Assembly: GCA_964629685.1 (NCBI GenBank)
Contig: CAZVTT010000001.1
Location: 319,796 to 383,795, forward strand
DNA: 64,000 nucleotides
Origin: an uncultured Gammaproteobacteria bacterium
Lineage (GTDB): Bacteria > Patescibacteriota > Microgenomatia > UBA10105 > UBA927
Direction: 5' to 3'
The notes under the pieces were generated by a model that did no database searches, was not told the origin of the DNA, and worked only from the letters and a program-made list of their open reading frames with translations. This document shows, in pieces, positions 242 through 42,303 of the stretch (positions within the stretch are counted from its first letter, which is position 1; every line of letters begins with the position of its first letter). A program made the translations under genes and the position numbers.

Positions 242-820
242 TTATTCCGTTTTATATTCCGGTTTTACATATGTACGGAAATCGGTAAGCAACTTGCTGA
301 TTTTTGGATCAATGACGATCTGGCAATACCCCTGGTAAGAATTCTTGGCGTAATAGTCTGCATGATATGATTCTGCCGGAAAAAATTTTGTGGCGGGAAG
401 AATTTCCGTAACAATAGATGTTCCGATTTTTTGGGATTCACTTTCCTTTGATTGTTCTGCTAGTTGCTTTTGCATCGGTGTATGGAAAAAAATTACAGAT
501 CTATATTGGGTTCCTGAGTCTGCTCCTTGTCTGTCTTTACTTGTCGGATCGTGAACGTGCCAAAATATTTCAAGTAGCTGATTAAAGGAAATAAGGGCAG
601 TATCATAAATCATTTCTATTGCTTCGACATGTCCGGTTTTTCCTGAACAGACATCATCATATGTGGGGTTATCTTTCGTACCGCCGATATACCCAGGAGT
701 TACGGATATTACTCCGATTACCCGTTTAAAGATTGCTTCCGTGCACCAAAAACAGCCACCAGCGAATGTTGCTTTTTCCGTACTATCCGTGATTTTGTCC
801 ATATGTCTTGAATTATGCAT
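242..820 (-). CDS. msrA: peptide methionine sulfoxide reductase MsrA
   Basis: 192 aa with the MsrA active-site motif GGCFWC and conserved downstream blocks (HDPT, YHxxYY). Confidence 0.9.
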   Translation of the reverse strand: MHNSRHMDKITDSTEKATFAGGCFWCTEAIFKRVIGVISVTPGYIGGTKDNPTYDDVCSGKTGHVEAIEMIYDTALISFNQLLEIFWHVHDPTSKDRQGADSGTQYRSVIFFHTPMQKQLAEQSKESESQKIGTSIVTEILPATKFFPAESYHADYYAKNSYQGYCQIVIDPKISKLLTDFRTYVKPEYKTE

Positions 821-1717: not shown

Positions 1718-3286
1718 ATGAAAAAAGTCATTTCTTACTGGTACCTGGTCCCCTTTTTCTTAACCGTTCTCGGTATCCTTGATGCAGGTTATTTAACTTG
1801 GGAACATTTCAACAACGTTATTCCTCCCTGTTCAGTTCATATACTATTCGCCGACTGCGGACGCGTACTTACCAGTCCATATTCCATTCTCTTCGGAATC
1901 CCTTTGGCGCTTATCGGGTTAATTCACTATATGCTTGAGGCCGTAACGGCTGCAGTTGTAATTTTAACCGGGAATAAGTGGGCAAAGCGCATCTTAGTAC
2001 TGTTAGTTACCGGCGGATTACTGGCTTCCATGTATTTTGTATACATTATGTTGGGTATTATCGGAGCGATTTGCCTTTATTGTATGGGTTCCGCAATTAT
2101 AAGTTTCCTCCTCTTTGGATTTGTGCATTGGTTAATGCCAAATGAGCGGGTTTATTGGGTAGTATCCATCGGCGGACGGTTATACCGTAATGGAATTAAG
2201 CAAATATTTTTTCGATTCGAACCGGAGAAGATACATGTTTTTATGGTTGCTACAGGAGAGATTCTGGGAGCGAACCCACTGACACGGTGGCTTACTGGGT
2301 TTTTTCTCCATGTTAAGGATACAACTCTATCACAGACGACAAACGGTATATATTTTGAGAATCCTGTTGGGTTGGCAGCGGGATTTGATTATGAAGCTCA
2401 GCTGAGTCAAGTATTGGACCGTATATCCTTCGGGTTTCAAAGTGTGGGTACGATTACGCTAGGATCCTATGGCGGTAATCCCCGTCCCATGCTTGGACGT
2501 TTGCCTAAATCGAAATCGTTAATGGTAAATAAAGGTTTCAAAAATTTAGGGGTAAATGAGACGATCAAACGGTTGCAGAATAAATTATTCCGAATTCCGC
2601 TAGGAGTGAGTATCGGCCGTACCAACGGACGGGATATGTCACAAAAGGAAAGTATTCAGGATATCGTAAATTCATTTGAAGCGTTCGAATCAGCGTCAGT
2701 ATCACACGCGTATTATGAACTAAATATAAGTTGTCCTAACCTGTTGGGTTCCGTTTCATTTTATTCTCCGAAAGATCTGAACGAATTGCTGCAGGCAATT
2801 TCAAGATTAAAGATCATCAAGCCTGTATTCGTAAAGATGCCAATCGACAAAACGGATAAAGAAATATTGGCTATGATGCAGATCATAGCAAAATACGATT
2901 GGATAAAAGGACTTATTTTCGGAAATTTACAGAAAAACCGTAAAGATCCGGCTTTGGATTCCGGTGAAGTTGCGAAATTCCCGGTTGGTAATTTTAGCGG
3001 TAAGCCAACGTACCAACGGTCCAACGAGCTTATTACATTAGCCTACGAACACTATGCGGAACGATTTACTATTATTGGCTGTGGGGGAATTTTTACCGCT
3101 GAGGATGCTTACGAAAAAATCAAAAGAGGTGCATCGCTGGTGCAATTAATCACTGGTATGATTTTTAGGGGACCGCAGGTGATAGCAGATATAAATATCG
3201 GATTACGTGATTTATTGGATAAGGATGGGTACCATTCGTTATCTCAGGCTATTGGTGTATCTACAAAGAAGAAAATTAAAAACTAA
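1718..3286 (+). CDS. pyrD: fusion protein: N-terminal VKOR (vitamin K epoxide reductase-family) membrane domain plus dihydroorotate dehydrogenase (class-2-like, quinone-type) domain
   Basis: The N-terminal ~140 aa have 4 TM helices, a loop Cys pair C-x8-C-GRVLTS (human VKORC1 has C43-x7-C51-SRVFSS) and a TM CLYC motif (VKOR has CIVC). Residues ~150-522 are DHODH: quinone-tunnel helices FFRFEPEKIHVF, NPVGLAAGFD, KGFKNLGV, NISCPN and GCGGI…GASLVQLITG. Confidence 0.8.
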   Translation: MKKVISYWYLVPFFLTVLGILDAGYLTWEHFNNVIPPCSVHILFADCGRVLTSPYSILFGIPLALIGLIHYMLEAVTAAVVILTGNKWAKRILVLLVTGGLLASMYFVYIMLGIIGAICLYCMGSAIISFLLFGFVHWLMPNERVYWVVSIGGRLYRNGIKQIFFRFEPEKIHVFMVATGEILGANPLTRWLTGFFLHVKDTTLSQTTNGIYFENPVGLAAGFDYEAQLSQVLDRISFGFQSVGTITLGSYGGNPRPMLGRLPKSKSLMVNKGFKNLGVNETIKRLQNKLFRIPLGVSIGRTNGRDMSQKESIQDIVNSFEAFESASVSHAYYELNISCPNLLGSVSFYSPKDLNELLQAISRLKIIKPVFVKMPIDKTDKEILAMMQIIAKYDWIKGLIFGNLQKNRKDPALDSGEVAKFPVGNFSGKPTYQRSNELITLAYEHYAERFTIIGCGGIFTAEDAYEKIKRGASLVQLITGMIFRGPQVIADINIGLRDLLDKDGYHSLSQAIGVSTKKKIKN

Positions 3287-13899: not shown

Positions 13900-14715
13900 T
13901 TGTACAAAAGGAAAGATATTGAATTTGCTAAAAGCGCACTGATTTTTCATTGGCTTCAACGTATAATATGCACCATGTACCATCATCGCACGCAGTCCAT
14001 TGACCAACATATTGCTCAAGAGCATAAACTATCACCGTTTACTACATATCTTAAGGAAATAGTTTATGGGGGGAATGACGGTATTATTACCACATTTGCA
14101 GTTGTGGCAGGTTTTACGGGATCTCAGGCTGGCAATATGGGCTCAATTCCTGTCATTACCGTACTTATTTTCGGGTTCGCGAATTTATTTGCGGATGGAG
14201 TGTCTATGGCGTTGGGGAATTTTTTATCAACCAGATCGGAACAGGAGGTTTACCAAAAAGAAAAAACTAAAGAATTAGCAGAGTTAAGACTGCATCGGGA
14301 TGCTGAAGAAATGGAAACGCTCGAATTATTGCGTATAAAGGGTTTTTCGGAAACACAAGCTAAAACGTTAGTAGAAATATATAAAACAAATGAGCCCTAT
14401 TGGGTGGATTTCATGATGAATCAGGAGTTGCGATTGCCGAATCCGGAAAATGAAAATGCCTTTCTGACTGCCAGTGCTACACTAATTGCATTTATCAGTT
14501 TTGGACTGATTCCGTTATTACCATATTTGTTATTGGGTGAAATAACTAATACGTTTGTTTTCTCTTGTTTGACTACTCTTGTTGCTCTTATAATGCTCTC
14601 CTTGGTCCGCTGGAAAGTGACGGCAAGAAATCCACTAAAAGTGTTGTTGGAAACGCTTCTATTAGGGGGAAGTGCAGCAACAATTGCCTATCTGGTGGGA
14701 ACACTCTTCAGATAG
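13900..14715 (+). CDS. VIT1/CCC1-family iron/manganese transporter
   Basis: EIVYGGNDGIITTFAVVAGFTGS N-terminal block, a central cytoplasmic acidic helix region and C-terminal TM helices. The true start may be an internal Met. Confidence 0.75.
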   Translation: MYKRKDIEFAKSALIFHWLQRIICTMYHHRTQSIDQHIAQEHKLSPFTTYLKEIVYGGNDGIITTFAVVAGFTGSQAGNMGSIPVITVLIFGFANLFADGVSMALGNFLSTRSEQEVYQKEKTKELAELRLHRDAEEMETLELLRIKGFSETQAKTLVEIYKTNEPYWVDFMMNQELRLPNPENENAFLTASATLIAFISFGLIPLLPYLLLGEITNTFVFSCLTTLVALIMLSLVRWKVTARNPLKVLLETLLLGGSAATIAYLVGTLFR

Positions 14716-24844: not shown

Positions 24845-25225
24845 TTACTGGTTTTTCAGGTAGAGCTCAAGCGAAAAGAGAGTTGCGACAAGCAAAATGA
24901 CGTATGAGGGTTCCCGTAAATTTAATGCTCTCAGAGATAAAATTATTACAATACCAAGTGTAATCAGTGTTGTTTGCCTTATGTTTACAGTACTGAAATA
25001 AACTATACACCATATCGATAAGCCAGTTAGGAATAACATAAATACAATAAGGGTTGGCGTGTTTGGTTGGTACGAGTTAATCAACCATCCGAGAGTACTG
25101 AAAGCAACTACACTGACAAAAAGTAAAATAAACGGTCGATTTTTTTGATGTAGAATCCGTTGTATGCGTTCTCGCATGGTTATTGTATGTAGATTCATTG
25201 TACGGACTAGCACCTCATAGTACAA
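24845..25225 (-). CDS. small membrane protein, hypothetical
   Basis: 126 aa, 3-4 TM helices. Confidence 0.35.
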   Translation of the reverse strand: MYYEVLVRTMNLHTITMRERIQRILHQKNRPFILLFVSVVAFSTLGWLINSYQPNTPTLIVFMLFLTGLSIWCIVYFSTVNIRQTTLITLGIVIILSLRALNLREPSYVILLVATLFSLELYLKNQ

Positions 25226-25237
25226 TGATTTGGGATT

Positions 25238-26104
25238 TTGGAGGAATGTATGTATAAAAAAGCATTTTATTCAATGGTAATTGTTACTGTCCTATGTCTA
25301 CTTGCATTTTCAGAGAAAGTTTCCGCTCATGGATCAGGTCCACCATATGTAAAAGTGAACATGCTCTATGCTCAGACAAATCCTTTAACTACGTACACTA
25401 CGCCCACGAAGTTCCGCGTCGGCGCTGATTTGGCATCGCCGTCGGCCTTTTTGGTAAATAAGCAGATTATATTTGAAATAGATGAACAATTTTTCCCGAA
25501 CCCATATAGGTTTGCCGCAAATCCCTTGGGTGGAATTGCGGTCCCCAGTAAAGAACAGATAACTCCTGAATTTCAGTGGGATTTTGATGATGGAAGTCAG
25601 CTTGTATCCGGTGGCAAAGTTACGCATATATATACAAAACCCGGGACATATATTGTAAATATTCTGGTTAAATTTCCGGGTAAAACGCAGGAATATTCCG
25701 GCGTAAATAGCGTTCAGTTAAATGTCGTGCCAACAGAGGACTATATCCTTCCTGAAGCGATTATTCGTGTGGATCAAACGGTAATTGCTAACCCTACCAG
25801 AGATGTTCAGGAAATATCACCCGGAAAACAAATTCGGTTTAGTGGAGAATCTTCACGCGGACAAATTGTAAAATATCTGTGGGATTTTGCTGACGGATCT
25901 GAATACAGCGATAAAGAAGTTTCCAAGCGGTTCAAATACGATGATTATTTCCCTATATTTCCGGTTTTGCGGGTACTTGATCAGAATGGAATTGCCAGTG
26001 ATACCTTTGTGTTCCTGGATACCCCTTTGGAAAATCCCAATCCGGTTATGCGGTTATGGCTACGGCTGCGTGACGCGTTGAGTTCTCTGTGGGATCGTAC
26101 ATAG
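25238..26104 (+). CDS. secreted PKD-domain protein
   Basis: Signal peptide (…SA-HGSGPP) and two PKD-like repeats (FQWDFDDGSQ, YLWDFADGSE). Confidence 0.6.
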   Translation: MEECMYKKAFYSMVIVTVLCLLAFSEKVSAHGSGPPYVKVNMLYAQTNPLTTYTTPTKFRVGADLASPSAFLVNKQIIFEIDEQFFPNPYRFAANPLGGIAVPSKEQITPEFQWDFDDGSQLVSGGKVTHIYTKPGTYIVNILVKFPGKTQEYSGVNSVQLNVVPTEDYILPEAIIRVDQTVIANPTRDVQEISPGKQIRFSGESSRGQIVKYLWDFADGSEYSDKEVSKRFKYDDYFPIFPVLRVLDQNGIASDTFVFLDTPLENPNPVMRLWLRLRDALSSLWDRT

Positions 26105-27681
26105 TGCTTATGATACTTGGATGGTTTATCCCTTTGTTGGCAATTGTTACTACAGCTGCAGTCGCGATTTTTTCAAAGAAACTGCATCCTTTTTCCAGTG
26201 CGATGCCGGCAAAAGCTGTAGTTGTACTTCCTTACGTCAGAAGATTTGTTTATGGTGTGGTTCTCCTGTGGGTCGCCGGTGTATATATGTATGCTGTTTA
26301 TATGTTCCCTACAGAGGCGGCTTCCTGGAGATTGATGACGCGGGTTTTCGGTTTTAGCGCACTTGCTTTAGTATATATAACACTTGTCCCCGGGCTTGTG
26401 CGTATATATTTCCCCGGTTTTCCGTTCACTCCGATATTCGTCCATGCGCGCAGAGCTCTGGGTGTAAGCGTTTTTCTTTTTGGAGTTTTGCATGGTGCAT
26501 TAGGTTTTATATTTAATCTTACGGGGTCAATCAATGCATTTTTTTTCCTGGCGTTGCAACATCAGCTAGCATTACTATCAAGCGGGATTGCATTATTTAT
26601 ATTCACTTTGCTTACATTAACATCAACGGATTATGCCGTTCGTTTATTGGGTAAGCGTTGGAAATGGCTGCACAGGTGGGTTTACGTGGCAGCTATCTGC
26701 ACAGTATTCCATGCATTCTTGATTGGATCGCACTTTGTGAGCGGAAAGTCGTTTATTCCCGTGGTTGTTAATTTCATAACATTAGTTTTTATTTTGCTGG
26801 AAACCGGTGCTACCTGGAAAAGAATAAGTAGTACAAATTCGACTTTCGTACGAAAGCGGTTGGTTGCGGCAGGCTTGATTTTCATATCGGTGGCGGCAAT
26901 CGGAATAAGTTCATGGTCGGTATCCCTTGCCTATGATCCACATTCCCGTCACAGGCAAGGGTATAGTAAAGACTATTCGGTAGAAATGATAACTGCACCC
27001 GCAGAGATAAAACCAAATAGTCCTTTAACCCTTACATTTAGTATTACTGATAAGCGAACCGGTAAGAGAGTAGAGAAGTTTAGGATTATTCAGGAAAAGT
27101 TAATGCATGTCATTGTGTTATCGAAAGATTTGACATACTACGATCATATTCACCCTGAATACCTGGGCAACGGAACGTTTTCCGTAACAACTATGTTGCC
27201 GAAAGAAGGTACATATCAATTGTATATCGAGTATTCTCCTCCGGATTTTTTTGAAAATGTAACTATTGTTTCTCTTAAGACTAATGGTGCTCAAAGTGCG
27301 GACGACGCTCATATATCCGTGGGAGCATTTGATAAACACTTTGCATCGCGCTACCAGGTTAAATTAAGTCCTGAAGGACCATTTAGAAAGAATGAGTCTG
27401 TAGATTTTATTTACACGCTTTCCGACGATAAAACGGGAAAACCTCTGGATACGCTAGAGCCGTATTTAGGTGCGTTTGGTCATTTAGCTATGGTCAGCGA
27501 AGATGGATTAACCTATGTTCACGTGCATCCGGTCGATATTCCTACGATTGGACAAACGGTTGGTGGCCCTTCCGTTCGGTTTAATACCTATTTTCCTAAA
27601 GCCGGAAAATACAAACTGTTCGCGCAATTTCAACATGAAGGTAAGTTATTCGTAACAGATTTTGTAGTGGAGGCTAAATGA
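26089..27681 (+). CDS. ferric-reductase-like (FRD/YedZ-type, bis-His heme) membrane domain fused to two periplasmic beta-sandwich metal-binding-like domains (YtkA-like)
   Basis: N-terminal ~280 aa have 6 TM helices with paired His (LHGALGF, FHAFLIGSH), typical of the ferric reductase TM component. The C-terminal part carries two repeated modules sharing H(I/V)HP…(L/F)PK-x-G-x-Y-x-L (YYDHIHPEY…LPKEGTYQLYIEY; YVHVHPVD…FPKAGKYKLFAQF). Confidence 0.6.
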   Translation: MGSYIVLMILGWFIPLLAIVTTAAVAIFSKKLHPFSSAMPAKAVVVLPYVRRFVYGVVLLWVAGVYMYAVYMFPTEAASWRLMTRVFGFSALALVYITLVPGLVRIYFPGFPFTPIFVHARRALGVSVFLFGVLHGALGFIFNLTGSINAFFFLALQHQLALLSSGIALFIFTLLTLTSTDYAVRLLGKRWKWLHRWVYVAAICTVFHAFLIGSHFVSGKSFIPVVVNFITLVFILLETGATWKRISSTNSTFVRKRLVAAGLIFISVAAIGISSWSVSLAYDPHSRHRQGYSKDYSVEMITAPAEIKPNSPLTLTFSITDKRTGKRVEKFRIIQEKLMHVIVLSKDLTYYDHIHPEYLGNGTFSVTTMLPKEGTYQLYIEYSPPDFFENVTIVSLKTNGAQSADDAHISVGAFDKHFASRYQVKLSPEGPFRKNESVDFIYTLSDDKTGKPLDTLEPYLGAFGHLAMVSEDGLTYVHVHPVDIPTIGQTVGGPSVRFNTYFPKAGKYKLFAQFQHEGKLFVTDFVVEAK

Positions 27682-28244
27682 AAAGAGCGTTTTTTCCTGT
27701 ATGTATAACTTTCTTTATGCTGCTTTTATTTCCACCCTATGCTTTCGCGCACATATTGAAAGTCGACGGGAAAATCGGTGTAACCGTGCATATTGACCCT
27801 GACGATCAGCCAGTAGCCGGAAAAGAAAGTAAAATATTTGTTGATATTCAGGATCAGAGTGGCAGGTTTAATCCCAGTAATCCCGAATCTTGCGATTGTT
27901 TTATTACTATAACATCCGAAGGGAAAAAAATGGCATCGATGTCTTTAGTTTCCGGAGGCACTTATGCTCAACTTAGGTATACCTTTCCTAAAGCCGGTGA
28001 ATATTTGTTAACTATAGACGGAAACCCCAATGGTACCGGTAAAGTATTTCAATCGTTTCATACGGAGTTTGAGTATTATGCTATGGGGGATACCCAAAAT
28101 CGGACGCAATCGGAAAATCCACTGAGAAATTATAGTCCATTAGTAATACTTATTGTCGGTATAGGATTAGTGTTGCTTGTCTTCATCCCTATGAATTCTC
28201 CCCGGACTTCCACTAAAGTTGACAAAGTGCGGAAGCGTGTGTAA
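27678..28244 (+). CDS. secreted/anchored paralogue of the periplasmic modules of the upstream FRD-fusion; predicted N-terminal His after signal cleavage
   Basis: Signal peptide …AFA|HILKV. Shares the VHIDP and FPKAGEYLLTIDG motifs with the upstream FPKAGKYKLF and LPKEGTYQLY modules. CDC pair; C-terminal TM anchor. Overlaps the upstream stop by 4 nt (translational coupling). Confidence 0.5.
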   Translation: MKRAFFPVCITFFMLLLFPPYAFAHILKVDGKIGVTVHIDPDDQPVAGKESKIFVDIQDQSGRFNPSNPESCDCFITITSEGKKMASMSLVSGGTYAQLRYTFPKAGEYLLTIDGNPNGTGKVFQSFHTEFEYYAMGDTQNRTQSENPLRNYSPLVILIVGIGLVLLVFIPMNSPRTSTKVDKVRKRV

Positions 28245-28653
28245 GGTGTATTACAATTCTACTGCAGGTATGATAAACATTAGAAGTTTCTTTTATTCTC
28301 ATCGCTATAGCATCTCCCTGATGATCAGTATATTTATGTTCGGATCGGTGTTATCAACTATATTTCGGGTAAACCCTTTCTCCTCACGAATTGTTTCGGT
28401 TGACTGTATTCAGCCGCTCCCTGCGTGTTCACAGCAAAAATGGTGGTTAATGGCCATTGCTCTGTGTGTACCATTCACATTCCTAGCAGGGATACTACAC
28501 AAGCGGAATAATACCTCACGTACCTATGTCGTAAAAAGACGTGTTCTCTACACTCAATTTACGCAGGTAAATAATGTATTTATAACTATAATCAGACGTG
28601 GGTTAACTCAGCCACTGCTGTATTCGTAAAACAACTTCGTTTCTCCGTTTTTT

Positions 28654-29328
28654 TTGAATCCATATCGAAAGGAGGTGAGTAAAATGAAACGTGTACTTAG
28701 TTTAGGTATTTTATTACTAGCTGTATTTTCTTTAGTTCCACAAATAAGTGCTCATGTTACGATTGACCCGAAGCAAGGTCTGGTCGGATCTCAAATCATT
28801 ACGGTTCGTGTTCCCAATGAACGGAAAATTCCAACGACGGAATTACGGGTTGTGGTTCCAGAGGGCGTAGATGTTACGGGCATATTGCCTGTCTCGGGTT
28901 GGAGTCATTCAGAGAAACGCACAGAGACACCAAAAATGTCCGGTACCAGCGGAATGCCGACTCAAACCGAAGAGGATGATCATGATCATGAAGAATCAAC
29001 CGGACCGATTTCGGAAATAACTTGGACTGGAGGAAAAATCGGAGTTGATGAATTTACTGAATTTAAAATAAGTATTCATTCTACGATGGAGAAAACTACA
29101 GTCTGGAAAACATATCAAAAGTATAGCGACGGTGTAGTTGTAGCCTGGGATGACAGCAGTGAGAAAAATCCTGCTCCAAAAGTGGAATTGACTGGCACAA
29201 AAACGACTGACAATTCTACGGCGATGACTGCTTCAAGCACAGCGGATACCATGCAATCACAATGGTTATCAGTCGGTGCAATTATACTTTCCGTAGCTTC
29301 ATTGGCTATCGGTTTACGGAAAAAGTAA
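28654..29328 (+). CDS. YcnI-like (DUF1775) copper-binding surface protein
   Basis: Signal peptide …ISA|HVTIDPKQG gives a mature N-terminal His (DUF1775/YcnI histidine brace). Contains an HDHEE patch and a C-terminal TM anchor. RBS AAAGGAGGTGA upstream. Confidence 0.6.
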   Translation: MNPYRKEVSKMKRVLSLGILLLAVFSLVPQISAHVTIDPKQGLVGSQIITVRVPNERKIPTTELRVVVPEGVDVTGILPVSGWSHSEKRTETPKMSGTSGMPTQTEEDDHDHEESTGPISEITWTGGKIGVDEFTEFKISIHSTMEKTTVWKTYQKYSDGVVVAWDDSSEKNPAPKVELTGTKTTDNSTAMTASSTADTMQSQWLSVGAIILSVASLAIGLRKK

Positions 29329-29389
29329 ATAAGAAAAGTGAACGTTTTTACGGCAATCCCTCTCTATGAGGGATTTGTCGTATTTTCAC

Positions 29390-29803
29390 CTATGGTTTTA
29401 GACATCTGGGACAAATTCCAAAAAATTCCAGACGGTGTGCGTTGATTTTATATCCGGTATTATTTGCGACGTTTTCCTGAATTTCTTGTGGTATGCAGTC
29501 AGAAATATCCGCGATTGCGCCACATTGTTGGCATACGGCATGGTGATGATGCGTGTGCGCTGCCAGTTCGTACCGGAATTTGCCTTCCATCAAGTCGAGT
29601 TTAAACAGAATGCCGTTGCTTACAAATGCCTCAAGTGTGCGGTAGACCGTCACTTGGTCAATTTTATATTTCTTGTCAGTCAGTTTTTGGTATATGTCCT
29701 GTGCGCTGAGAGGTAGTTGAGAATGCTTGAAAATGGCAATAATCTGCTCTCGTGCCTTGGTCCTGCGTAAGGAAGTAGATGACTGATTTTGGTTTGTCTC
29801 CAT
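29390..29803 (-). CDS. Fur-family metalloregulator
   Basis: 137 aa; winged-helix N-terminal part (YRTLEAF), an HHHH patch, and a C-terminal CxxC…CxxC. Confidence 0.85.
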   Translation of the reverse strand: METNQNQSSTSLRRTKAREQIIAIFKHSQLPLSAQDIYQKLTDKKYKIDQVTVYRTLEAFVSNGILFKLDLMEGKFRYELAAHTHHHHAVCQQCGAIADISDCIPQEIQENVANNTGYKINAHRLEFFGICPRCLKP

Positions 29804-39826: not shown

Positions 39827-41065
39827 TTATCTCCAGACGCCTCCGATAAAGAGTTCGGCCTCAATGGTAAAGGTCGTCGTGCCACTTGAAGGAATTGTAA
39901 AGTTGAGAATGTATTCTCCGGCATCATTTTTAGCTGACGTTTCGGTGAATGTTCCGCCGTTGACTCTGATTCTGGCTTTGGTTGCGTTCGTTCCGACGAC
40001 TGCAATCACGATGCTGTCTCCCGGTTGCAGGTTGTTCGGATTGACGACTTCACCGTTTCTGTAAATCTTGATGTTCTGACATTGTCCCGTAATATCCGTT
40101 GGTGTCGGTGTATAGGTAACGGTAACTGTCGCTGTGGGCGTGTTCGTTGGCGTGATGGTACATTTGTCGTCGCTGCAGACTACACCATTCTGTAGACAGG
40201 CTGTCAGGACACATTTGTTGGCGCTGCAGGTGTGATTCTGTGGACATTGTGCATTACCGGTACAGGCATTTCCACATTGCGGGTTCGGTGTTGGCGTTGG
40301 TGTCGGTGTCTTGGTTGGAGTAGCCGTCGGTGTTTTGGTCGGTGTGTGTGTTGGTGTATTGGTGTTGCCTGTCGGTGTGGTTGGTGTTGGGGTATTTCCG
40401 CCACCGCCACCACAACTTGAGCTGATAACTTCAAAACTTCCACAACCTAAATTATCCCGTGAGCCTCCACGGCAGACTTCATCAACTTGTCCGCATCCTT
40501 GGGTGTATGCTTTTGCAGCTGCCCAGTTCGGGAAATCATAGGAAAGATTCTCGTGACATTCTCCGCCTGAAAGATTCCCACAACGGTAGGCGTTAATTTT
40601 GCCACAGGTACCTCCGGGACAAAGATCGCCGCCGACCTGATTACAGACGCGATTTCCACTTGTTCCGGTACAGACAAGATTCTGTCCACCGCAACATGGT
40701 TTGTTTTCATCACAAGCCTGTAACTTTGCCGCGCATTGACCATTAGTAGGGGTAGGCGTACTGTACGGACCACTAGCTGCTCGATTCCTAGTGTCTTGAA
40801 CTGATTGTGCACCGAAGTAAATTACCGGAAGTGAAAGCAGCATTAACAACATTACTGCCATCAATATCATCTTTTTCTTGTTATTCTTGCCGGCTGCAGG
40901 TGGAGGAGATGCTGGGGGAACACTGGAACCGGCACTTGCTCCCGGTGTCCATGATCCTGTCTGACCCATTAATGCATCTAAATTCGGTTCAGCTTCCGGT
41001 GTCGGTGGAGGAGTTGTTGCACTTGTTGTATCCGTCGGCTGATTAGCTAGTATGTCTGCTGTCAT
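39827..41065 (-). CDS. N-in membrane-anchored surface protein with two Cys-rich modules, (TP)n linkers and a C-terminal beta-rich domain; copy 1 of a tandem pair
   Basis: 412 aa. A Pro-rich cytoplasmic N-terminus with KNNKKK before a single TM. The extracellular part has CCGG, CPGGTC and CGGGGG motifs, a (TPT/KTP)n linker, and QCGNACTGNAQC…KCVLTAC…CSDDKC. Identical to the next gene except for the first ~8 codons. Confidence 0.6.
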   Translation of the reverse strand: MTADILANQPTDTTSATTPPPTPEAEPNLDALMGQTGSWTPGASAGSSVPPASPPPAAGKNNKKKMILMAVMLLMLLSLPVIYFGAQSVQDTRNRAASGPYSTPTPTNGQCAAKLQACDENKPCCGGQNLVCTGTSGNRVCNQVGGDLCPGGTCGKINAYRCGNLSGGECHENLSYDFPNWAAAKAYTQGCGQVDEVCRGGSRDNLGCGSFEVISSSCGGGGGNTPTPTTPTGNTNTPTHTPTKTPTATPTKTPTPTPTPNPQCGNACTGNAQCPQNHTCSANKCVLTACLQNGVVCSDDKCTITPTNTPTATVTVTYTPTPTDITGQCQNIKIYRNGEVVNPNNLQPGDSIVIAVVGTNATKARIRVNGGTFTETSAKNDAGEYILNFTIPSSGTTTFTIEAELFIGGVWR

Positions 41066-41067
41066 AG

Positions 41068-42303
41068 TTATCTCCAGACGCCTCCGATAAAGAGTTCGGC
41101 CTCAATGGTAAAGGTCGTCGTGCCACTTGAAGGAATTGTAAAGTTGAGAATGTATTCTCCGGCATCATTTTTAGCTGACGTTTCGGTGAATGTTCCGCCG
41201 TTGACTCTGATTCTGGCTTTGGTTGCGTTCGTTCCGACGACTGCAATCACGATGCTGTCTCCCGGTTGCAGGTTGTTCGGATTGACGACTTCACCGTTTC
41301 TGTAAATCTTGATGTTCTGACATTGTCCCGTAATATCCGTTGGTGTCGGTGTATAGGTAACGGTAACTGTCGCTGTGGGCGTGTTCGTTGGCGTGATGGT
41401 ACATTTGTCGTCGCTGCAGACTACACCATTCTGTAGACAGGCTGTCAGGACACATTTGTTGGCGCTGCAGGTGTGATTCTGTGGACATTGTGCATTACCG
41501 GTACAGGCATTTCCACATTGCGGGTTCGGTGTTGGCGTTGGTGTCGGTGTCTTGGTTGGAGTAGCCGTCGGTGTTTTGGTCGGTGTGTGTGTTGGTGTAT
41601 TGGTGTTGCCTGTCGGTGTGGTTGGTGTTGGGGTATTTCCGCCACCGCCACCACAACTTGAGCTGATAACTTCAAAACTTCCACAACCTAAATTATCCCG
41701 TGAGCCTCCACGGCAGACTTCATCAACTTGTCCGCATCCTTGGGTGTATGCTTTTGCAGCTGCCCAGTTCGGGAAATCATAGGAAAGATTCTCGTGACAT
41801 TCTCCGCCTGAAAGATTCCCACAACGGTAGGCGTTAATTTTGCCACAGGTACCTCCGGGACAAAGATCGCCGCCGACCTGATTACAGACGCGATTTCCAC
41901 TTGTTCCGGTACAGACAAGATTCTGTCCACCGCAACATGGTTTGTTTTCATCACAAGCCTGTAACTTTGCCGCGCATTGACCATTAGTAGGGGTAGGCGT
42001 ACTGTACGGACCACTAGCTGCTCGATTCCTAGTGTCTTGAACTGATTGTGCACCGAAGTAAATTACCGGAAGTGAAAGCAGCATTAACAACATTACTGCC
42101 ATCAATATCATCTTTTTCTTGTTATTCTTGCCGGCTGCAGGTGGAGGAGATGCTGGGGGAACACTGGAACCGGCACTTGCTCCCGGTGTCCATGATCCTG
42201 TCTGACCCATTAATGCATCTAAATTCGGTTCAGCTTCCGGTGTCGGTGGAGGAGTTGTTGCACTTGTTGTATCCGTCGGCTGATTTAAAGATTGATTGTC
42301 CAT
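41068..42303 (-). CDS. copy 2 of the tandem Cys-rich/TP-linker surface protein
   Basis: 411 aa, identical to copy 1 from residue ~8 onward. The N-terminus is MDNQSLNQ versus MTADILANQ in copy 1. Confidence 0.6.
   Translation of the reverse strand: MDNQSLNQPTDTTSATTPPPTPEAEPNLDALMGQTGSWTPGASAGSSVPPASPPPAAGKNNKKKMILMAVMLLMLLSLPVIYFGAQSVQDTRNRAASGPYSTPTPTNGQCAAKLQACDENKPCCGGQNLVCTGTSGNRVCNQVGGDLCPGGTCGKINAYRCGNLSGGECHENLSYDFPNWAAAKAYTQGCGQVDEVCRGGSRDNLGCGSFEVISSSCGGGGGNTPTPTTPTGNTNTPTHTPTKTPTATPTKTPTPTPTPNPQCGNACTGNAQCPQNHTCSANKCVLTACLQNGVVCSDDKCTITPTNTPTATVTVTYTPTPTDITGQCQNIKIYRNGEVVNPNNLQPGDSIVIAVVGTNATKARIRVNGGTFTETSAKNDAGEYILNFTIPSSGTTTFTIEAELFIGGVWR

Follow-up and report, generated by a model that had tools for sequence, protein, structure and literature searches.

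A candidate cell-surface copper redox and hand-off gene cluster in Patescibacteria

Gene content of the locus

In a 64,000-nucleotide stretch of contig CAZVTT010000001.1 (assembly GCA_964629685.1, positions 319,796 to 383,795; hereafter the window), four adjacent genes, here called A to D, are predicted to encode a membrane electron carrier fused to two candidate copper-binding domains (B) and three surface proteins whose mature forms would begin with histidine (A, C and D). We hypothesize that they represent a conserved cell-surface copper redox and hand-off system of Patescibacteria, a reading to which we assign a probability of roughly one in two. The five open reading frames (ORFs) of a preliminary description of this DNA, A to D and a convergent gene E, were recovered at the same coordinates and in the same order. 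Its domain calls (PKD, Ferric_reduct, YtkA, DUF1775 and FUR) all agreed with Pfam, in the case of YtkA marginally, and the motifs it quoted, HIHPE...LPKEGTYQL, HVHPV...FPKAGKYKL, AFA|HILKV and ISA|HVTIDPK, are all present.

Features of the locus (window coordinates):
25238-26104, + strand: gene A, 288 aa; two PKD domains (Pfam PKD_4, 66.8 bits)
25328-25330, + strand: codon of His31 of A at the predicted cleavage site VSA|H31; predicted mature N-terminal His, then HGSGPPYVKVN
26089-27681, + strand: gene B, 530 aa; Ferric_reduct (PF01794) and YtkA (PF13115); fusion of a ferric-reductase-type membrane domain (FRD) to two modules
26209-26832, + strand: FRD core of B, residues 41-248; six transmembrane (TM) helices, MsrQ/STEAP type
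26941-26952, + strand: H285-x-x-H288 of B, within YDPHxxHR and immediately after TM7; invariant (alignment A1)
26959-27288, + strand: module 1 of B, residues 291-400; immunoglobulin (Ig)-like; invariant H340, H353, H355, P356 and E389
27301-27678, + strand: module 2 of B, residues 405-530; invariant Y459, L460, G464, H465, H478, H480 and P481
27678-28244, + strand: gene C, 188 aa; no Pfam match; signal peptide, beta-sandwich and C-terminal TM anchor
27750-27752, + strand: codon of His25 of C at the predicted cleavage site AFA|H25; predicted mature N-terminal His
28270-28629, + strand: small ORF S, 119 aa from ATG; possible membrane protein between C and D, weak evidence
28654-29328, + strand: gene D, 224 aa; YcnI/DUF1775 (PF07987, 68.2 bits)
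28753-28755, + strand: codon of His34 of D at the predicted cleavage site ISA|H34; predicted mature N-terminal His
29355-29375, strand unassigned: hairpin plus T-run in the intergenic region of the convergent pair D and E; terminator-like, found by consensus scan only
29390-29803, - strand: gene E, 137 aa; Fur family (Pfam FUR, 106 bits); convergent with D

The 3' end of A, including its stop codon, overlaps the start of B, and the coordinates of B and C imply a 4-nucleotide overlap (ATGA) in which the stop codon of B is shared with the start codon of C. ORF S could encode a small membrane protein directly upstream of the DUF1775 gene and carries the motif FDPxHP...C(I/V)Q. Its relatives were found by phmmer only in two related loci (L006 and L085) and by eye in two others (L002 and L005), and the public annotation of an identical contig (L001) calls no gene there; conservation was too weak for us to retain S as a confident gene. 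Rfam searches detected no RNA family within the window, and a scan for promoters and terminators returned counts at the level expected by chance, except for the hairpin between D and E. Just upstream of the ribosome-binding site of gene A, at 25198-25226, lies a 6-bp inverted repeat (TTGTAC, 17 nucleotides, GTACAA) that is short enough to have arisen by chance.

Conservation of the gene cluster

We surveyed gene order at 15 loci that encode homologues of B with 30-65% identity. Gene C lies directly downstream of B in all 15, D is encoded at 13 (of the two loci without it, one is on a contig that ends early), and A occurs in 12, either before B or after D. In two cluster representatives, A and B form a single polypeptide (P0010, 809 aa; P0201, 787 aa). 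Because these associations persist among B proteins so divergent in sequence, the A-B-C-D arrangement is not a chance one. The preliminary description had overlooked both the predicted N-terminal His of the PKD protein A and its membership in the cluster.

Other genes are sporadic in the same census. A Fur-family gene is found at 2 of the 15 loci, a cupredoxin gene at one (L087, the gene after D), an adjacent resistance-nodulation-division (RND) pump at one (L092) and DsbB/DsbA at one (L088), and VIT1 at none. Neither the window cluster nor the related loci yielded a CopD domain or a copper-responsive repressor (YcnK or CsoR). An MsrA gene lies within 6 kb at three loci (L042:5445-5963, directly upstream of B; L007:11307-11924; L092:10169-10543), an arrangement that may link the cluster to repair of oxidative damage. 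The window also encodes an MsrA, at 242-820 (- strand), about 25 kb from the cluster.

The membrane electron-transfer domain

Residues 88-205 of B match Ferric_reduct at 31.2 bits (cut-off 28). In the AlphaFold2 (AF2) model the protein has eight helices, which we assign to one N-terminal TM helix, the six-TM core and a seventh TM helix. The seventh helix places residues 285-530, and thus both modules, outside the cell, and the extra N-terminal helix explains the A-B fusions, in which the PKD portion preceding B would likewise lie outside.

An ungapped BLASTP alignment pairs residues 115-208 of B with residues 71-164 of Escherichia coli MsrQ (taken from NC_000913; E 1e-7). In this alignment R77 and R78 of MsrQ correspond to R121 and R122 of B, H91 to H135, W147 to W191, H151 to H195 and H164 to H208. 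In MsrQ, H91 and H164 hold a single outer haem b, and R77, R78, W147 and H151 line the flavin mononucleotide (FMN) site (PMC12525009). Among the 29 B-type sequences of alignment A1, H135, H195 and H208 are invariant, whereas R121, R122, S179, W191 and H215 reach at least 90% conservation; H215 is located where TM5 meets the outer face. H135 and H208 are putative ligands of an outer haem b, and R121, R122, S179, W191 and H195 form a putative flavin site.

The preliminary description had looked for four haem-ligating His on TM3 and TM5, as in two-haem proteins of the NOX/FRE type, and this expectation did not hold: three are conserved, and Arg121 occupies the fourth position. A 2013 survey of these domains describes the same replacement of the fourth His of NOX-type proteins by Arg in the MsrQ/STEAP1 subgroup, and notes both ferric and cupric reductase activity in the STEAP family (PMC3591440). 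Since the members of this subgroup are proven transmembrane electron carriers, the missing fourth His does not undermine transmembrane electron transfer by B. We conclude that the membrane core of B is a domain of the one-haem-plus-flavin MsrQ/STEAP1 type, with haem and flavin binding predicted from the conserved residues. B is not an MsrQ orthologue: it scores 47.5 bits against a cut-off of 130 for the NCBIfam MsrQ model, and no gene for the MsrP molybdoenzyme lies near it or in any of the 15 loci.

By the topology of the modelled helices, H285-x-x-H288 lies at the outer membrane surface, where it may be part of a metal site. Sequence searches of B and C against the PDB returned nothing meaningful.

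The extracytoplasmic modules and their family

Both outer modules are beta-sandwiches in the AF2 model, and the internal duplication noted in the preliminary description is borne out by hhalign (module 1 against module 2, 99.2% probability, E 1.7e-19). Each contains three invariant His, H340/H353/H355 and H465/H478/H480, which are kept in stand-alone homologues. The YtkA match over residues 293-380 of B is marginal (27.1 bits against a cut-off of 25.9, and no single stretch passes) and module 2 has no such match; a homologue at locus L016 reaches 31.5 bits. YtkA is also known as CtaK, an assembly factor of the CuA centre (PMC13344008, PMC9145763). Neither B nor C matches the Pfam CopC family, and their resemblance to CrdA is at the level of fold only.

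A phmmer search with residues 288-530 of B against 1.84 billion cluster representatives retrieved 4,152 clusters at E<=0.001, including 2,025 at E<=1e-10. Judged by their length and by where they match, roughly one quarter of the top 150 matches appear to be FRD fusions of about 500 aa; of six such proteins that we examined, five match Ferric_reduct, three of them above the Pfam cut-off. The module also occurs in other fusions. In P0210 it is part of a C-terminal fusion with a P1B ATPase, which scores 619 bits with the copper-ATPase model TIGR01511 and so passes it, in P0206 it is fused to a cupredoxin domain, and in P0219 and P0235 to an HMBD heavy-metal-binding domain. The stand-alone proteins are about 300 aa long, are often lipoproteins with a His-rich linker, and keep all six His (alignment A4).

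We then considered the genes within 6 kb of the stand-alone form at 74 loci outside the candidate phyla radiation (CPR), most of them cyanobacterial. A heavy-metal RND pump is encoded at 35 of these loci, a conserved 170-aa lipoprotein at 30, a MerR regulator at 18 and a P1B ATPase at 17. Thirteen of the ATPases carry CPC, YNx4P and MxxSSx5N, motifs that we take to indicate the Cu(I) type, two carry CPH, and the rest are fragments that cannot be typed. The cyanobacterial RND pump passes only a mixed CusA/CzcA model, and the cyanobacterial MerR proteins score similarly for the Hg, Zn and Cu types. The lipoprotein, of about 165 aa, is encoded between the heavy-metal RND pump and the two-module gene (L016:5098-5610, L059:8941-9429 and 28 other cyanobacterial loci); it has no Pfam or NCBIfam match and shares the motifs YHLE...THxDxYLQTGDxHEA...NGRFxF.

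The family is also carried on 237 plasmids detected by tblastn, 99 of them from Staphylococcus. Nearly all of the plasmid matches listed are annotated "hypothetical protein", and a few from Hymenobacter "heavy metal-binding domain-containing protein". On the Staphylococcus epidermidis plasmid SAP108A the module gene directly follows csoR, copA and copZ as the fourth gene (L093:5887-6543) and its product retains the six His. On the Nostoc plasmid pCC7120beta (L094:7001-7879) it lies inside a copper island, together with genes for a DUF305 protein, a four-helix-bundle copper-binding protein, a P1B ATPase, a cupredoxin-domain protein, a MerR-type regulator and a protein with a heavy-metal-associated (HMA) domain. 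These copper-locus contexts and fusions are the strongest evidence that the modules handle copper, and copper operons seem to include this family as a so far unnamed component. The three-His (His3) sites of B are accordingly candidate copper sites.

The partner proteins

The His at position +1 of mature A, C and D was predicted with the -3/-1 rule for signal peptide cleavage, which fits all three proteins, and for D also from a match to a crystallised N terminus. Of 11 orthologues of A, 10 share the A|H junction, after which comes GxPP[YF]xK[IV]N.

Protein C has at least 221 homologues and, one stray Pfam hit aside, no Pfam assignment; the few homologues with source names are from CPR bacteria. 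Its invariant positions are A24|H25, L27, G34, P41, D43, P45, D59, C72, C74, Y109 and G115, and H38 is more than 90% conserved. The preliminary description regarded C as a free-standing paralogue of the modules, and a relationship was indeed detected, albeit only a remote one (hhalign against module 1, 83.7% probability, E 8e-6). His340 of the module aligns with Cys74 of C, and the candidate ligands of C, namely the N-terminal His25, His38 and C72-x-C74, differ from those of the modules. In the structural model (mean confidence score, pLDDT, 84.5) C begins with an N-terminal hairpin of strands 26-30 and 33-40, and a C-terminal TM helix follows the domain. DSSP strand assignment suggests that His25 may lie opposite His38 in this hairpin. 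The best fold matches are CrdA and PmoD.

There are hints that the CxC of C is a redox-active or Dsb-dependent pair. At locus L088, DsbB and DsbA genes lie upstream of B. A locus labelled Saccharimonadales (L091:5001-6553) has C but no FRD fusion, and the genes right after C encode DsbB and a DUF2231 membrane protein. A 277-aa gene upstream of C at a Saccharimonadales locus was considered as a stand-alone two-module protein, and it is not one.

As the preliminary description had proposed, protein D is a YcnI: it matches Bacillus subtilis YcnI (PDB 7me6) with E 1.2e-8, aligned from residue 1 of the crystallised mature protein. The counterparts in D of His27, Glu50 and Trp137 of B. subtilis YcnI are His34, the VPNER Glu and the VVAWDD Trp, and all three are invariant in 11 of 11 orthologues. 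In YcnI these residues form a mono-histidine-brace Cu(II) site (PMC8424229), so that the earlier description of D as a protein of the histidine-brace type needs correction, as this is not the classical brace. D also contains EDDHDHEES, an acidic insert rich in His, and ends in a TM anchor.

The Fur-family regulator

The subtype of E is ambiguous. NCBIfam models score it about equally as Fur (91.5 bits) and PerR (89.1 bits), as do PDB matches (80 and 74 bits). Opposite PerR D104, the residue is Asp in E and Glu in the aligned Fur; we take the residue at this position to separate PerR from Fur. A search for the 7-1-7 Fur-box consensus TGATAATNATTATCA with at most three mismatches returned 10 matches against 6.8 expected, none of them convincing near promoters. 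The preliminary description had placed the regulator within the system. Given that a Fur-family gene occurs at only 2 of the 15 loci, that Fur boxes are not enriched and that a terminator-like hairpin separates D from E, we do not count E as part of it.

A proposed surface copper reduction system and its alternatives

Because an electron carrier is fused to candidate copper-binding domains and encoded beside three surface proteins with predicted N-terminal His, we suggest that the cluster probably reduces copper and passes it on at the cell surface. B would take electrons at the cytoplasmic side through its putative flavin site, from a donor that would be a flavin or NAD(P)H-dependent. The electrons would cross the single outer haem b in the manner of MsrQ and STEAP and reach copper held on the outer face by the two fused His3 domains, and the invariant His cluster at the membrane surface (H215, H285 and H288) may participate. 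D, C (through its N-terminal His and CxC) and A would capture Cu(II) and exchange copper with B. The net outcome would be conversion of Cu(II) to Cu(I) outside the cell, either for acquisition or for delivery to cuproproteins. YcnI binds Cu(II) with a reported Kd of ~2 nM (PMC8424229), and reduction would free copper from tight Cu(II) binders for hand-off or uptake. Both the direction of electron flow and the role of reduction in uptake or metallation are parts of the scheme that we infer.

The general idea of the preliminary description, that metal handling outside the cytoplasm is coupled to a transmembrane electron-transfer domain standing where CopD would be, is upheld by these findings. 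It had left the choice between copper and iron open, and copper is now much better supported than iron, owing to the copper-operon contexts of the module family.

Several observations weigh against a copper reduction and hand-off system. The stand-alone module homologues sit in copper efflux and resistance loci, not in uptake loci, and since Cu(I) is the more toxic form, reduction would be counter-intuitive there. The cluster encodes no copper importer (CopD, Ctr or other), and a copper-responsive regulator is likewise missing. These bacteria are generally thought to be without quinones and haem synthesis, which leaves the electron donor and the source of haem unexplained. Sites with three His also suit Zn, Ni or Fe, the YtkA match of B is marginal, and P19/Tp34-type Cu-plus-Fe proteins also appear among the fold matches. 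Finally, the MsrA genes near three of the loci point to oxidative-damage repair.

We rank the copper reading above three alternatives. One is an assimilatory iron system, in which B would be a ferric reductase like STEAP or MsrQ, the modules would resemble P19, FtrA or Tp34 with copper as cofactor and iron as cargo, Fur would exert control, and Fe(II) would pass to a transporter encoded elsewhere. The membrane domain does belong to the ferric-reductase family, STEAP4 is an Fe(III) reductase, and a Fur-family gene is adjacent. MsrQ-like systems associated with VIT1 have been proposed as iron reductases (PMC8238504), and a VIT1-family gene (189 bits) is present in the window at 13975-14715 (+ strand). 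However, this gene lies 11 kb upstream of the cluster and VIT1 is absent from the census loci, the Fur gene is rarely conserved, is convergent and is set apart from D by the hairpin, and the Fur-box search yielded nothing beyond a slight excess over expectation. No match to the P19 family (PF10634) was found, the conserved partner YcnI is a Cu(II) protein, and in the contexts examined the module family occurs in copper or heavy-metal loci, where all typable ATPases are of the copper type and csoR, copZ, cupredoxin and Csp are present. We therefore regard an iron system as unlikely.

An enzyme of redox defence or repair, comparable to MsrPQ, seems to us similarly improbable. B would in this case feed electrons to catalytic copper centres acting on superoxide, peroxide, O2 or oxidised surface proteins, and the CxC of C would be a redox-active disulfide. 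The resemblance of the membrane domain to MsrQ fits such a function, as do the DsbB or DsbA genes adjacent at L088 and L091, and the PerR-like Asp and near-equal PerR score of E. The frequency of MsrA, three of the 15 loci, can be compared with about 1% expected per locus in a genome of ~900 genes by our own estimate. Type-2 copper enzymes, moreover, contain sites composed of HxH plus a further His. Yet neither MsrP nor another known catalytic partner is encoded, and the literature presents YcnI as a chaperone-like binder of Cu(II) (PMC8424229, PMC12362106). Inside copper export operons the His3 modules are found with no electron-transfer domain, so that cargo binding fits them better than catalysis.

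Less probable again is detoxification or buffering of copper at the surface, whereby the modules, C, D and A would sequester the metal as CopC, PcoC and CrdA do, and the role of the FRD would be limited to adjusting the oxidation state of the bound copper or to maintaining the CxC thiols in reduced form. This would agree with the resistance and efflux loci of the stand-alone homologues, with the role of CrdA as a resistance determinant (PMC9182242) and with the RND pump adjacent at L092. Against it, delivering electrons to copper would yield Cu(I), the more toxic form, neither a copper exporter nor a copper sensor is encoded in the CPR clusters examined, and B. subtilis YcnI has been linked to acquisition (PMC12362106, PMC13344008).

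Many of these bacteria are thought to live attached to other cells, and we consider it very unlikely that the haem/flavin domain, instead of serving copper uptake, supplies electrons for oxidative copper chemistry at the surface, with A, C and D as membrane-tethered, oxygen-activating enzymes similar to lytic polysaccharide monooxygenases (LPMOs) that would be reduced by the His3 modules of B and act on polymers of the host or of their own envelope, although if true this would be the first bacterial system with a dedicated transmembrane reductase powering histidine-brace enzymes.

Other features of the window

Elsewhere in the window, a 522-aa ORF at 1718-3286 (+ strand) starts with a VKOR domain, matched at 90 bits, and also contains a dihydroorotate dehydrogenase domain, matched at 167.5 bits; this is an unusual joining of a disulfide/quinone oxidoreductase to DHODH, in an organism presumed to be without a respiratory chain. 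Two adjacent ORFs of about 411 aa, at 39827-41065 and 41068-42303 (both - strand), have near-identical N-terminal halves (TSATTPPPTPEAEPNLDALMGQTGSWTPGASAGSS...) that resemble a tandem duplication. They occupy the most G+C-rich part of the window (0.47-0.50, compared with about 0.41 elsewhere).

Comparison with known systems

The preliminary description likened the cluster to ycnKJI of B. subtilis, in which YcnJ is a CopC-CopD-YtkA fusion and is accompanied by YcnI and YcnK. Part of this likeness stands. In both cases a YcnI/DUF1775 protein with a His/Glu/Trp Cu(II) site and a C-terminal anchor is encoded next to a polytopic membrane protein that carries extracytoplasmic CopC/YtkA-like copper domains of Ig fold. 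The cluster nevertheless lacks a CopD domain, a Pfam CopC match and YcnK or CsoR; its membrane part is a predicted electron-transfer flavocytochrome rather than a putative channel, and it includes two additional proteins with predicted N-terminal His, C and A.

With E. coli MsrQ (YedZ), B shares the TM core, the same distances between the two haem His and between the FMN-site residues Arg-Arg, Trp and His, and the absence of a fused NAD(P)H domain. Unlike MsrQ, B has no MsrP partner, and it has two extra TM helices and a fused outer domain of 250 residues. STEAP1-4 and the yeast proteins Fre1 and Fre2 reduce Cu(II) and Fe(III) before uptake, and the role that we propose for B parallels that of STEAP or Fre1 upstream of Ctr1. 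These proteins, however, are eukaryotic and have no fused metal-binding Ig domains, and STEAP2-4 and Fre have an NADPH domain of their own.

CopC, PcoC, CrdA and PmoD have no detectable sequence similarity to the cluster proteins, and their ligands, a His brace with a Met-rich loop, differ from the His3 sites of the modules and from the N-terminal His with CxC. As regards P19, FtrA, Tp34 and HftA, the copper-dependent iron uptake proteins, the cluster has no Pfam match to them and no nearby Ftr1 permease.

As the preliminary description had supposed, the domain combination seems not to have been characterised before, and our literature searches found no paper describing this architecture. In its available part, the 2013 survey lists electron-transfer domains alone as fusion partners of FRDs, with no YtkA, CopC or copper-binding partner (PMC3591440). 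Another survey, on extracytosolic electron transfer by MsrQ-like systems, deals with flavinylation-linked clusters that include VIT1 and are mostly actinobacterial (PMC8238504), and the papers on YcnI (PMC8424229), YcnJ and CtaK mention no reductase partner. No dedicated bacterial cupric reductase turned up in the literature searches.

The significance of the cluster lies in three points. It gives a copper context to a large family so far annotated "hypothetical protein". It suggests that candidate-phyla bacteria, whose usual description is of cells lacking respiratory chains, have an electron path outside the cytoplasm that depends on haem. To our knowledge, neither the extracytoplasmic reduction of Cu(II) by bacteria nor the release of metal by tight Cu(II) binders of the YcnI or CopC type has been resolved, and the cluster provides a directly testable candidate for a bacterial cupric reductase, a STEAP/MsrQ-like flavocytochrome with predicted copper-binding domains that is translationally coupled to a His/CxC partner.

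Taken together, since the cluster has no CopD, YcnK or MsrP and B falls below the MsrQ equivalog cut-off, we cannot place the cluster within either ycnKJI or MsrPQ. It instead resembles a hybrid of the two kinds of system, with YcnI and outer copper domains as in ycnKJI and electron delivery as in MsrQ and STEAP, and is a member of neither.

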